Shown here one piece after another: positions 7,812 to 11,043 of a DNA stretch of 29,277 bases (position 1 is its first letter; every line of letters begins with the position of its first letter). The translations under genes were made by a program, and so were the position numbers. Source of the stretch: a candidate division WOR-3 bacterium (GTDB lineage: Bacteria > Hydrothermota > Tepidihabitantia > Tepidihabitantales > Tepidihabitantaceae); contig CBFGIT010000031.1 of the NCBI GenBank assembly GCA_965648905.1, positions 1 through 29,277 of the forward strand, written 5' to 3'. The notes beneath the pieces were generated by a model, which had not been told where the DNA came from, did not search any database, and was given only the letters and a program-made list of their open reading frames with translations.

Positions 7812-8050
7812 GCCTTTCCTCCGGCAAGCAGCTTCTTCAGTTCGTCCTTGGACGGGACCTTGCCCTGAGCAACGACCTTGCCGTCAATCACCAGCCCGGG
7901 CGTCATGAAGACGCCCATCGCGGCGAACTTCTTGAGGTCGGTGACGTGTTCGACTTCGGCCGCGATGTTCATCTCCGCGAGCGTGTCGCGCACGCGCTTC
8001 TCGAGTTCCTGACACCGGGCACAGCCGATTCCGAGTATCTGGACTTTCAT
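7808..8050 (-). CDS. Small redox-active disulfide protein (MTH895/ArsE-like thioredoxin), copy 2, intact
   Basis: MKVQILGIGCARC...FMTPGLVIDGKV; AAAGGAG RBS; clear paralogue of 874-1113. Confidence 0.92.
   Translation of the reverse strand: MKVQILGIGCARCQELEKRVRDTLAEMNIAAEVEHVTDLKKFAAMGVFMTPGLVIDGKVVAQGKVPSKDELKKLLAGGKA
7991..8046. repeat. 56-bp exact direct repeat, copy A (5' end of thioredoxin gene)
   Basis: cacgcgcttctcgagttcctgacaccgggcacagccgattccgagtatctggactt is identical to 9055-9110. Confidence 0.97.
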
Positions 8051-8074: not shown

Positions 8075-8998
8075 CTAGACATCAAACAGACGGATGAGGT
8101 ATTCAGGTCTACGTATCTCGTCAAGTGCTTTGGCGGCCTTACCCCGCGTGGCCACAAGCGGGAGTTTCCCTTTACCCGGAAGAGGTCGCCTACGAATGCG
8201 GAAGTGGGCTGCTGCAACCGCAGTACCCATGAGTTCGGCAGAGCACCTCTGCACGCCGTGACGTTGCCAATATGCGCTCGGATCCTCGTGGACCGCCGAC
8301 ACGGCGATGCGTGCCGACCCCCGCCAGAGGGCGCGCCATTTCTCAGTCAGCCGCCGCAGTTGGGCTGCGTCGGGTTCCACCGGGTGTTCTGAGTCATGCG
8401 GCAGCAAACGAGGTATGAGTCTGGATCGTTTCAGAACATCTTCGTATGGGCGCACACCGTACATGTCATAGCACGCGCAGAGCAGGGCTAGTCCGCTTGG
8501 GAGACGAACCAGCCGATGGCTGTCCGAGAAGTCGTCCTCGCAGGAGTACCAGACAGGGTTTTGCCGTGGGCCCGGGTTCTGTGGAGGCGGGAACACCTTT
8601 CTACCTAGTCCCTTGACTCCCTTGGCATCCCAAGCTACACAAAACTCGTCTCCCCTCCAATGCTCAGTTCCACGTGCGTCGACGCCAGCGATTATCAGCG
8701 GTTGTACGGGCCGTCCGCGCTTCGCCAGCATCGTGCACGCCCGCATACAGTCGTCGGAGTAGTCCGTGACAACGATCTTTGCCATTCGTGTTTCTGTGTC
8801 GAGGAGACCCAGATGCTCCGGATGACGGAAGTACCCGCCCGGCAGCACGACGCAATCCAGGCTGTCCCATCCGTGTTCCTTGATGTCGAGGGCTATCGCT
8901 AGCAGCAGGCCCGAGCGGTACTGATTCGTGGAAGCGGACTTGGCCTTCGACCCCACTACGCAGACGGTGACAATCCGTCCGTCGTTTCTTGTACTCAC
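8075..8998 (-). CDS. Hypothetical protein with carbon-nitrogen hydrolase (nitrilase)-like motifs
   Basis: DCVVLPGGYF, GRKVFP and LLCACYDMYG line up with the nitrilase P-E / R-K / C-Y-D blocks. GGAGGT RBS favours GTG at 8998 over ATG 9013. Looks less GC-rich than the flanks by eye. Confidence 0.6.
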   Translation of the reverse strand: MSTRNDGRIVTVCVVGSKAKSASTNQYRSGLLLAIALDIKEHGWDSLDCVVLPGGYFRHPEHLGLLDTETRMAKIVVTDYSDDCMRACTMLAKRGRPVQPLIIAGVDARGTEHWRGDEFCVAWDAKGVKGLGRKVFPPPQNPGPRQNPVWYSCEDDFSDSHRLVRLPSGLALLCACYDMYGVRPYEDVLKRSRLIPRLLPHDSEHPVEPDAAQLRRLTEKWRALWRGSARIAVSAVHEDPSAYWQRHGVQRCSAELMGTAVAAAHFRIRRRPLPGKGKLPLVATRGKAAKALDEIRRPEYLIRLFDV

Positions 8999-9054: not shown

Positions 9055-9110
9055 CACGCGCTTCTCGAGTTCCTGACACCGGGCACAGCCGATTCCGAGT
9101 ATCTGGACTT
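9055..9110. repeat. 56-bp exact direct repeat, copy B
   Basis: Identical to 7991-8046; abuts the intron 3' end. Confidence 0.97.
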
Positions 9111-11003
9111 GTCGAGTAGAAATCATTTCTTACCTCCCCTGGGTCATAGATTCCCCTCACAGAACCGAACGTGACCATTTCGGTCATTCGGCTCTTCATG
9201 AACACTTCCGCTAAGGAGGGGGTAACGCCGATATATCTTCGGTCGGGGAAGCGGATGATACTCCAGCCAGCGCTTGAACCGCTGCCAGTCGTAGCTCCGA
9301 AGCTGGCTCCGCCGATTCAGCCACTTGTACGCCAGCCCAACCACGTGCCGGTAGAAGCTCTGCACGCTCCGTAGATTCCCGCCTATCCCATAGTAACGAT
9401 AGTATCCCGTGACTTTCGCCGCCAGCAGCGACCACCAGTCGGCAAGCTTCATCTGATTCCGTATGCTCCTGAGCCAGTCGTTCATCTGTCCCAGTGCCCG
9501 TCGTAGTCGCTTCCGCTCTGTCTTGCGCCCCAGCTTGAAGCCGCCCGTTCGCGTCTGTTCGCAGTAGTGCGTGAACCCTAAGAAGTCGAAGGTTGCCAGT
9601 CGCTTCGCTTGTCGCCTTGCCGCTGCCCATTGGTAGCGCCCGAACTCGATTACCCGGCTCTTGGTCTCAGCCAAACGCAGCCCGAACTTTCCCAGCCGTT
9701 CCGCGAGATTTCCCATGAAACGCCGGGCCTCTTGCCCACTCTGCACGCAGACCACAAAGTCGTCCGCATACCGCGTCAGGTGGGCATAGCCTCTCGTCTG
9801 CCGCTTGACCTTGCGCTCAAACCATAAGTCGAGTACATAGTGCAGGTAGATGTTTGCCAGCACCGGACTCAGTACGCTGCCTTGGGGTGTGCCCGCGGTC
9901 GTGGCACTCTTCCGACCTTCAGTCACTACGCCCGCCGTCAGAAATCGCGCTATCAGTCGTAGAAAGGCACTGTCGGTAATGCGCTGCTCTAAACAACGCA
10001 TCATCCATTCGTGATTCACCGTGTCGAAGAACCGCTCGATGTCCGCATCCACGACGTAGTTGACCGGTCGCGTCATGATTGTCCGGTCGAGCGCGTCTAA
10101 GGCATCGTGTGCCCCACGCCCTGACCGGAATCCGTAGGATACCTCCAGAAAGTCAACCGCAAAGACCGCCTCCAGTATCAGCTTGCAGGCCATCTGCACT
10201 ATCTTGTCCTCTACCGCCGGTATGCCCAATGGCCTTCGGTCGCCATTCGGCTTCGGGATGTATACCCGCCGGGGCGGTCGCGGACGATACTGCCGAGCCT
10301 TCAGCCGCCGGACCAAGTCCTTGAGATTGACCACCAGATTCGCTTCGTAGTCCTCAACCGTTACCGCATCTATGCCCGGGGCCTTGTTACGCTTCAGCTC
10401 CCCGAAGCACGCCCGTAGGAAGTCATCAGTAAGCAGGTGCATTAGTGCACAGAATCGGCTTTGAGGATTCTTGCTGGCCCTTAGAGTAAGGGACTTGAGT
10501 CTTGTTGAGAACCGTGCTCCGGTTCTGAGTCCGGCAGTTCTGTCCCTCAAGTCCCGTCGCATTCCTGTAGGCCCCTTCGCTCCACCCGCGTTAACGGGCT
10601 TCGTCGCTACTATGGGCCTATCCGACTCCCATAACGCCGTCTGGGCCGCCTTGTCTTTCCGGGACTTGGCCGCCCATACTCTGCTGAGAGCGTCATGGGT
10701 CTCCCGAGTTCCTGGCCTATCCGTATGATACCTCGCCACGGTCTCAGACCCCGCCAGTCTCGCCGCTCCTTGCCTGACGGTGCGGAGAGTATTGCCTGCG
10801 GCTTTATGAACAGCATCGGCAACTGGGATGACAGGAATTACGGGGCTCAATCCCTTCACTTGCGTTGTGGCTCGGTAACTCGTTTCCGCTGGCTTCATAG
10901 CTTCGGTTACCCTGACTATGCAGCGTTCACTATTGAGGTGGCTGCCAACCTTCCTCAAGCCGGACTCTCACCGGCTGGACAAACCAGACTTTTCTCGGCG
11001 CAC
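9111..11003 (-). mobile_element. Group II intron (IIB-like, probably bacterial class E), 1,893 nt, apparently complete
   Basis: 5' end GTGCG at 11003; domain V GAGCCGAATGACCGAAATGGTCACGTTCGGTTC (9194-9162); domain VI with bulged A at -7 (9117); 3' end ...CTCGAC at 9111; removal restores ATG AAA GTC CAG. Confidence 0.95.
9144..10562 (-). CDS. ltrA: Group II intron reverse transcriptase/maturase (no HNH endonuclease domain)
   Basis: KAPGID, RPLGIP, SYGFR, DADIERFFD, GTPQGSVLSPVLANIYLH, RYADD, FDFLGFTHYC, then the X domain. ATG 10562 follows the DIII-like segment; the start is uncertain (track gives 10958). Confidence 0.93.
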   Translation of the reverse strand: MRRDLRDRTAGLRTGARFSTRLKSLTLRASKNPQSRFCALMHLLTDDFLRACFGELKRNKAPGIDAVTVEDYEANLVVNLKDLVRRLKARQYRPRPPRRVYIPKPNGDRRPLGIPAVEDKIVQMACKLILEAVFAVDFLEVSYGFRSGRGAHDALDALDRTIMTRPVNYVVDADIERFFDTVNHEWMMRCLEQRITDSAFLRLIARFLTAGVVTEGRKSATTAGTPQGSVLSPVLANIYLHYVLDLWFERKVKRQTRGYAHLTRYADDFVVCVQSGQEARRFMGNLAERLGKFGLRLAETKSRVIEFGRYQWAAARRQAKRLATFDFLGFTHYCEQTRTGGFKLGRKTERKRLRRALGQMNDWLRSIRNQMKLADWWSLLAAKVTGYYRYYGIGGNLRSVQSFYRHVVGLAYKWLNRRSQLRSYDWQRFKRWLEYHPLPRPKIYRRYPLLSGSVHEEPNDRNGHVRFCEGNL

Positions 11004-11043
11004 TCATCGCATCCTCCTGCTTTGGGTTGATTCGCTTTCCATG

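Follow-up and report, generated by a model that had tools for sequence, protein, structure and literature searches.

Since transcription and translation are coupled in bacteria, group II introns have little time to splice there, which is held to be why they avoid genes. The accessible text of a 2015 review lists three target specificities for them, namely homing sites, terminators and attC sites (PMC4424553). The clade of Michel et al. (2007), as portrayed in the accessible part of a citing paper, belongs to IIB1/CL1, carries a 300-700-nt 5' insertion and lies at initiation and termination codons, and the way in which it colonises start and stop codons is called unknown there (Gomes et al. 2025, PMC12584367). 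Here we describe a group II intron in a 29,277-nt stretch of DNA (hereafter the window; contig CBFGIT010000031.1, positions 1 to 29,277, assembly GCA_965648905.1) from a candidate division WOR-3 bacterium, together with its relatives in other genomes and in metagenomes. The intron sits one base after a start codon and carries a second Shine-Dalgarno sequence (SD) and ATG in its domain VI (DVI). We consider it likely, from sequence comparison, that the lineage consists of autonomous group II introns aimed at the translation starts of genes, with a spare SD and ATG that would keep the host gene expressed. A lineage that enters at the start codon with a replacement ribosome-binding site and ATG would bypass the limit on splicing time.

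Like the clade of Michel et al. (2007), the present lineage is tied to translation signals (in the window, one base after ATG), and the groEL members of that clade, which lie inside a stop codon that exon and intron together rebuild, follow the same cost-avoiding logic. The two are set apart here through the citing paper's description. On that description, the CL1 reverse transcriptases (RTs) carry an endonuclease domain, whereas those of the present lineage are without it (Pfam, TIGR04416); the clade has its 300-700-nt insertion in a 5'-subterminal position, whereas the present lineage lacks one, the domain I elements of the window intron following its 5' end at once (the section 5' of the maturase open reading frame (ORF) is 441 nt, and the Rfam D1 model begins at intron nucleotide 36); and the clade occupies proteobacterial housekeeping genes, whereas the present lineage is found in diverse genes of many phyla, with a fixed rule of start codon plus one base and an SD and ATG in DVI. 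Group IIC introns share with the lineage a target that is a functional motif class and a short pairing between exon-binding site 1 (EBS1) and intron-binding site 1 (IBS1), but they insert after DNA hairpins in intergenic positions (terminator, attC), while the present introns lie inside the coding start, behind 5' exons made up of SD and start codon. IIC-attC introns likewise bring an expression signal with them, as they reportedly have outward-facing promoters from which cassettes downstream are expressed (Leon et al. 2010, cited in the accessible text of PMC8876359), but this signal is transcriptional rather than translational. RmInt1-type (class D) introns resemble the lineage in having an RT/maturase without an endonuclease domain, and by analogy mobility here probably depends on replication-fork primers, as the accessible text of PMC4424553 gives as established for that type. 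RmInt1 itself, however, recognizes one long specific site through EBS1, EBS2 and EBS3, whereas targets of the present lineage hold no information at positions -5 to -10 and no EBS2-type pairing is seen. Our literature search, which had Michel et al. (2007) outside its reach, found no paper on an SD and ATG in DVI or on the start-codon-plus-one rule in this lineage; the idea of an intron-borne start may already be in print. The lineage can be described as group II introns specialized on translation signals; the chance is real that they form an undescribed target class, which, if true, would stand as a new one beside those in the accessible list of the 2015 review (PMC4424553).

The intron and its exons are laid out as follows, all on the minus strand.

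11017-11013, minus strand: host Shine-Dalgarno GGAGG in the 5' exon, with a 5-nt spacer (ATGCG) to the host start codon
11007-11005, minus strand: host start codon ATG, followed by A at 11004 (ATGA = IBS1), with the intron inserted directly 3'
11007-10930, minus strand: short frame from the host ATG into domain I, 25 codons, stop TAG at 10932-10930
11003-9111, minus strand: complete group II intron of 1,893 nt (GTGCG...CGAC), from the sequence read-out and Rfam
10968-10739, minus strand: domain I section, Rfam RF02005 (group-II-D1D4-6), 117.4 bits, gathering score 49
10820-10794, minus strand: EBS1 hairpin, in whose loop UCAU (10809-10806) is the pairing partner of the 5' exon's AUGA
10562-9144, minus strand: intron-encoded RT/maturase of 472 amino acids from the ATG at 10562, with YADD present and stop TGA at 9146-9144
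9196-9111, minus strand: domain V (DV) to DVI, Rfam RF00029, 55.1 bits, gathering score 40
9194-9162, minus strand: DV
9161-9111, minus strand: DVI, with an 11-bp basal helix and a bulged branch A at 9117
9137-9132, minus strand: spare Shine-Dalgarno GGAGGT in distal DVI, followed by the spacer AAGAA
9126-9043, minus strand: spare ATG (9126-9124) and the frame that it opens, 27 codons, stop TAG at 9045-9043
9110-9055, minus strand: 3' exon, a 56-nt exact copy of bases 5-60 (codons 2-20) of a thioredoxin-like gene
8062-7808, minus strand: intact Thioredoxin_3 gene, with SD AAGGAG at 8062-8057 and start ATGA^AAGTCC at 8050 (^ marks the insertion point here and below)
8046-7991, minus strand: second 56-nt copy, inside the intact Thioredoxin_3 gene

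The window intron has the GTGCG 5' end, DV, DVI with a bulged A and AC 3' end (9112-9111) of a group II intron, and its own genome holds a single copy. The joined exons would read ATGA+AAGTCC. The intact Thioredoxin_3 gene (start at 8050) opens with this very sequence, as does its orthologue in a relative, and these empty sites prove the intron boundaries. From the DVI start, the sequence reads ATG ATT TCT ACT CGA C^AA GTC CAG, giving MISTRQVQILGIGCARC, in which MISTR is followed by a Q that spans the junction. A preliminary description of this DNA had placed the spare SD at 9137-9132, 5 nt ahead of an ATG at 9126-9124 whose frame enters the 3' exon, and every one of these coordinates holds.

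Relatives were collected with the maturase as query: the best 80 of 91 relatives in species genomes gave 79 loci and the best 80 of 408 in metagenomes gave 80 (individual loci are referred to by L numbers). Intron 5' ends were located by nhmmer, with a profile built from the starts of ten introns, and 3' ends by DV and a conserved CTACYYRAC. Counts of junctions below refer to 118 distinct 5' junctions from these 159 related loci and the window, and counts for the spare start refer to 87 complete, distinct insertion sites, comprising 61 at start codons and 26 at other targets. The lineage is widespread and mostly bacterial, occurring in many phyla and in diverse host genes.

Sequence comparison across these loci establishes an insertion rule. 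At 80 of the 118 distinct junctions, the intron lies one base after ATG, GTG or TTG (ATGA 62, ATGG 10, GTGA 5, TTGA 2 and GTGG 1), so the insertion after ATGA that had been read from the window alone holds as start codon plus one nucleotide; 3/118 junctions fall directly after ATG and 35/118 elsewhere. One of the two TTGA sites (L162) shares other features with a target-switched sublineage described below. Position -1 is A in 69/80 and G in 11/80 start-codon sites, and position +1 is A in 50/54. A perfect GGAGG stands 4-9 nt 5' of the start codon in 66/80 sites, most commonly at a spacing of 6 nt, compared with 9/73 neighboring ORFs of the same loci, for which any of the first five start candidates was allowed. 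Information in the site logo is confined to the purine block (-11 to -17), the four bases -4 to -1 and position +1; there is none at positions -5 to -10. The frame entering domain I from the host start closes after 5-47 codons in 78/80 sites (modes 11, 36 and 25). Host genes are ordinary and diverse, with a Pfam match in 13 of the 24 tested; in the case of TusA, adh_short and FeoB_N, the domain starts within residues 1-6 counted from the junction. In one metagenome-assembled genome (MAG), four copies that are 99.8-99.95% identical occupy four different gene starts at SD-start spacings of 6-8 nt, which on sequence grounds is a mark of recent mobility onto gene starts.

Several side observations concern these target sites. 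The window's genome contains 77 empty GGAGG-N4-9-ATGAA matches (14 for a reversed-pattern control) against its one intron copy. In L129 and L146, the 5' exons end GGAGG-N-...AAT^G and EBS1 reads AUUGU or AUUUU, such that these introns seem to split the start codon (AT^G), their first G completing the ATG. Furthermore, the DVI of the window intron and that of L044 (which has ATGA^A) read SD-N5/6-ATGA, a near-consensus target of the same lineage, and a nested insertion into DVI seems possible.

The target is read, at least in part, by a hairpin loop in domain I. Pairing between this loop and the exon, anchored at -1, reaches at least 4 bp in 94% of 117 aligned introns, and a pairing of 6 bp is found in 45% of the 117, compared with 9% once introns are matched to the exon tails of others. 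The loop changes with the 5' exon tail: AUGG is matched by CCAU, GUGG by CCAC, UUGA by UCAA, ACUGGA by UCCAGU, UCUUCA by UGAAGA and, in an archaeal clade, ACACAG by CUGUGU. This covariation with exon tails identifies the loop as EBS1, a 6-nt loop (UCAUnn) that pairs with the start codon and one further base, and this pairing, like the insertion rule, is shown by sequence comparison. A uracil directly 5' of EBS1 had also been considered as the partner of the A at +1; this was withdrawn, as the base stays U where the 3' exon starts with C (L027, L100, L110, L149, L162).

The target logo of GGAGG, 4-9 nt and ATGR^A, together with an RNA pairing of only 4-6 bp, poses the question of what reads the SD. 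A conserved anti-SD (CCUCC or a GU-tolerant variant) was found in no column when the first 330 nt were aligned, and none was found anywhere in 19 full introns; an anti-SD or EBS2-like element was rejected, there being no such element and no information at target positions -5 to -10. Because the intron lacks an anti-SD, the SD would be read by something other than RNA pairing. It is possible, rather than probable, that these introns represent a fourth group II target specificity, in which initiation regions as a class (a strong SD, a 4-9-nt spacer and start codon plus one base) would be recognized by an anticodon-like EBS1, with the SD read by the intron protein or by a ribosome-linked step, and a replacement SD and ATG would keep hit genes expressed with or without splicing.

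The spare start of the window is shared throughout the start-codon introns. The preliminary description had named conservation of the DVI signals and of their frame in homologues as its own check, and the homologues bear it out: an in-frame ATG is present in DVI at 61/61 start-codon sites (50 at -13 and 11 at -16), preceded by GGAGG at 49/61 and by four of the five SD bases at 11/61, with only 1/61 lacking an SD. At the other targets, the in-frame ATG is found in 25/26, GGAGG in 5/26, a four-of-five SD in 6/26 and no SD in 14/26. An in-frame stop before the junction occurs at 0/61 start-codon sites versus 6/26 other targets, where the stops come from a change of CGA to TGA, and an in-frame ORF of at least 60 amino acids follows the junction in 32 of the 41 start-codon sites with enough sequence, versus 3/20 other targets. 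The SD lies 5-9 nt before the ATG, and the distance from the ATG to the 3' splice site is 13, 16 or 19 nt (the -19 position is that of the target-switched L049, likewise in frame), which in each case makes the last intron base codon position 1 and keeps the host frame. Conservation of SD, spacing, ATG and frame in the DVI of start-codon introns is thus evident from the alignments.

Introns at other targets fall into an archaeal clade, a clade at GGGGTCA...CTTnA^C, and L100, L047, L049 and the pair L003 and L154. The archaeal clade (L018-L038, L057-L061, L077-L080) comes from MAGs of Methanosarcinales, anaerobic methanotrophic archaea (ANME) and Methanoperedens; its 5' exons end in CACAG or CACGG within short repeats (cacagaNNacacag), and its EBS1 is CUGUGU. 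A quick IQ-TREE phylogeny of 56 maturases places start-codon lineages to either side of this clade (clade support 100; backbone 81-94 SH-aLRT), so that the archaeal targets look derived. Five further loci (L012, L110, L148, L149, L162) share the conserved site GGGGTCAnnyCTTnA^C with EBS1 UGAAGA or UCAAGG, and their DVI has lost the SD and kept the ATG; the SD is also lost in L100 and L047. The alignments therefore document decay of the spare start after target switches. Beside this, in L154 (ACGA^) and L003 (ATAGA^) it is the host start codon that looks decayed, the SD and ATG of DVI being intact. These two are probably decayed start sites. A takeover by the spare start would be expected to leave such sites, but L154 has too short a 3' exon to judge by, and L003 a closed one. 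Within the archaeal clade, the 3' end of the first intron in L019 is followed after 10 nt by another intron 5' end, and in L059 DV-DVI occurs twice, at a distance of 227 nt.

Insertion thus falls at (A/G/T)TG-R^A, in most cases with a strong GGAGG ahead of it, and the patterns suggest a mechanism. In unspliced RNA, ribosomes loaded at the host SD and ATG would enter domain I and meet a stop codon within about 5-47 codons, while ribosomes starting in DVI would make the host protein with an N-terminal tag MSTRQ (MISTRQ in the window) in place of Met and residue 2. A folded DVI would partly hide the spare SD and ATG and an open DVI would expose them, such that each RNA would either fold and splice, restoring the original start, or stay open and be translated from the spare one. 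Since the host gene would be expressed either way, insertion would cost little. The translation of host genes from the spare start of unspliced RNA is what we infer here; the earlier proposal that a hit gene would be translated with or without splicing gains support at the level of the lineage in this conditional sense and finds no use at the window locus, where the device is idle (see below). If it operates as proposed, the design could suit gene-targeting introns that spare expression of the target, as well as the tagging of N-termini. It also bears on annotation, as interrupted genes are easily called truncated, or given a shifted start and thereby a spurious N-terminal MSTRQ.

Alternatively, the SD-like motif and ATG may be kept for the ribozyme, as parts of helices or of a tertiary contact, and lie in frame by happenstance, with no host protein made; we hold this to be unlikely. 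DVI folds into an 11-bp basal helix with a bulged branch A and a short distal helix, and across 16 sequences 93.7% of cells are paired and 7 pairs are changed on both sides. The ATG stands at the top of the basal helix and the SD in the distal loop, and two G of the SD as well as the ATG are base-paired in the consensus, with covariation. The archaeal clade, with CACAG-type sites and no ORFs, retains an ATG at -16, often with AGGTG. However, a purely structural role does not lead one to expect that SD spacing stays within a functional 5-9 nt despite varied sequence and length of distal DVI, nor that an ATG at any of three positions is in frame every time. Stops arising from CGA to TGA at 6/26 non-start and 0/61 start sites indicate that the ribozyme tolerates the very change that start-codon introns lack, the SD has been lost in the target-switched GGGGTCA...CTTnA^C introns, L100 and L047, and in the window DVI only the G of the spare ATG is paired, yet its unpaired AT is retained.

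A spare start that serves the intron itself, by keeping ribosomes on the transcript against Rho termination or decay, with host protein as a by-product, seems to us rather improbable. In the accessible text of PMC12584367, group II introns are without a promoter and rely on host transcripts; Ll.LtrB intron RNA is reportedly protected by ribosome association, according to the accessible part of PMC3851717; and the bias of targets toward strong SDs fits such a benefit. Mere ribosome loading would nevertheless not need the strict frame match or the absence of in-frame stops. A chance motif confined to the window intron, to which the 8% of window DVI shuffles with an SD-like tetramer and in-frame ATG might point, can be set aside as very improbable, the same arrangement in 60/61 related start-codon introns of many phyla having already refuted it.

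Several points weigh against the proposal of start-directed introns with a spare start that keeps the host expressed. Taken alone, the window motif does not exceed chance: 1,587 of 20,000 dinucleotide shuffles of its G/A-rich DVI likewise contain an SD-like tetramer together with an in-frame ATG that no stop follows, so it is the conservation in relatives that counts. The site counts on which this conservation is measured are phylogenetically non-independent, with an estimated 4-5 or so independent target switches, and 9/41 start-codon sites, the window included, have short downstream frames. The SD and ATG lie inside a structured, conserved domain, and their conservation may be structural in part; the ATG at -16 and frequent AGGTG of the archaeal clade, off start codons, indicate that the motif can persist without its proposed use. 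The choice of strong SDs in targets is left unexplained by any pairing of the intron RNA. In four sequencing runs (three RNA libraries and one DNA), no exon-exon joint and no evidence of the start, of its translation or of splicing was found; the contigs obtained are 90-99% alike, all within 9098-11021 with none on the flanks, and come from related introns, and the share of words present in the runs was small, 0.10-0.19. Finally, contrary to the earlier assumption that the intron splits a whole host gene, its 3' exon is a 56-nt duplicated fragment. Beyond this copy, which begins exactly at the 3' splice site, the frame adds MES before the stop TAG at 9045-9043, and the intact gene lies 1 kb downstream as an unoccupied target site, AAGGAG-N6-ATGA^AAGTCC. 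With the 3' exon reduced to a dead fragment and the intact gene equipped with its own SD and ATG, the spare start serves nothing visible here; at the window locus, with its 27-codon frame, the device is idle.

The intron-encoded protein (IEP) of the window matches RVT_1 (E 2.6e-36) and TIGR04416 (359 bits, cut-off 300; residues 48-418 of 472). No endonuclease domain was found in it, Pfam giving RVT_1 alone and the C-terminal rest being read-through of DV. By sequence ranking alone, the nearest solved IEPs are IIC-type RTs (E 1e-45 to 1e-46), followed by T.el4h and LtrA. The maturase had been described as reading through DV to a stop at 9144, 6 nt before the spare SD, and as possibly coupling its own translation to that of the host. 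The first is confirmed for the window, where the frame crosses DV and ends 6 nt 5' of the spare SD and 17 nt 5' of the spare ATG; the second applies, if at all, to the window's sublineage. Start-codon introns provide 50 distinct DV-DVI sequences, and in 41 of them the maturase frame stops 18-90 nt before DV, which rules out coupling as a lineage-wide feature. The nine that read through DV belong to the window, to close relatives such as L089-L095 (maturases 84-93% identical to that of the window), and to L027 and L106. All nine frames end 17 nt before the spare ATG, an arrangement that would allow coupling in this sublineage only. Growth of intron ORFs into ribozyme core sequences is known as 'core creep' (accessible text of PMC3073962), and by analogy the window frame running through DV into DVI fits such creep after loss of the original stop; unlike the spare start, it would be a side feature of one sublineage rather than part of the general design. 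Elsewhere in the lineage, L053, L056 and L046 extend over 2.6-3.7 kb from 5' end to DV, and L053 and L056 contain a second, distant RT ORF (31-34% identical) inside the intron, making these two probable twintrons.

One further gene lies downstream of the intron.

8998-8075, minus strand: ORF312, about 307 amino acids, of no known family, with a probable GTG start at 8998 behind GGGAGGT

ORF312 sits between the two 56-nt direct repeats. It has no match in Pfam, NCBIfam or PADLOC, and five homologues, all unnamed. A DNA search of 40 relatives matched the thioredoxin-like gene, not ORF312; in one of them (G019) an ArsP-type permease is directly followed by the thioredoxin-like gene, without a Usp gene, intron or ORF312. 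The protein begins (M)STRNDG-RIVT (8998-8978), whereas its five homologues start 1-5 residues before RIVT and are without STR. Its MSTR equals the tag that the lineage's DVI start would add, though in different codons (AGT ACA AGA versus TCT ACT CGA), and could be either a scar left by an intron since lost or coincidental. A second thioredoxin-like paralogue lies at 877-1114 of the window, with 81% DNA identity to the gene at 8050-7808.

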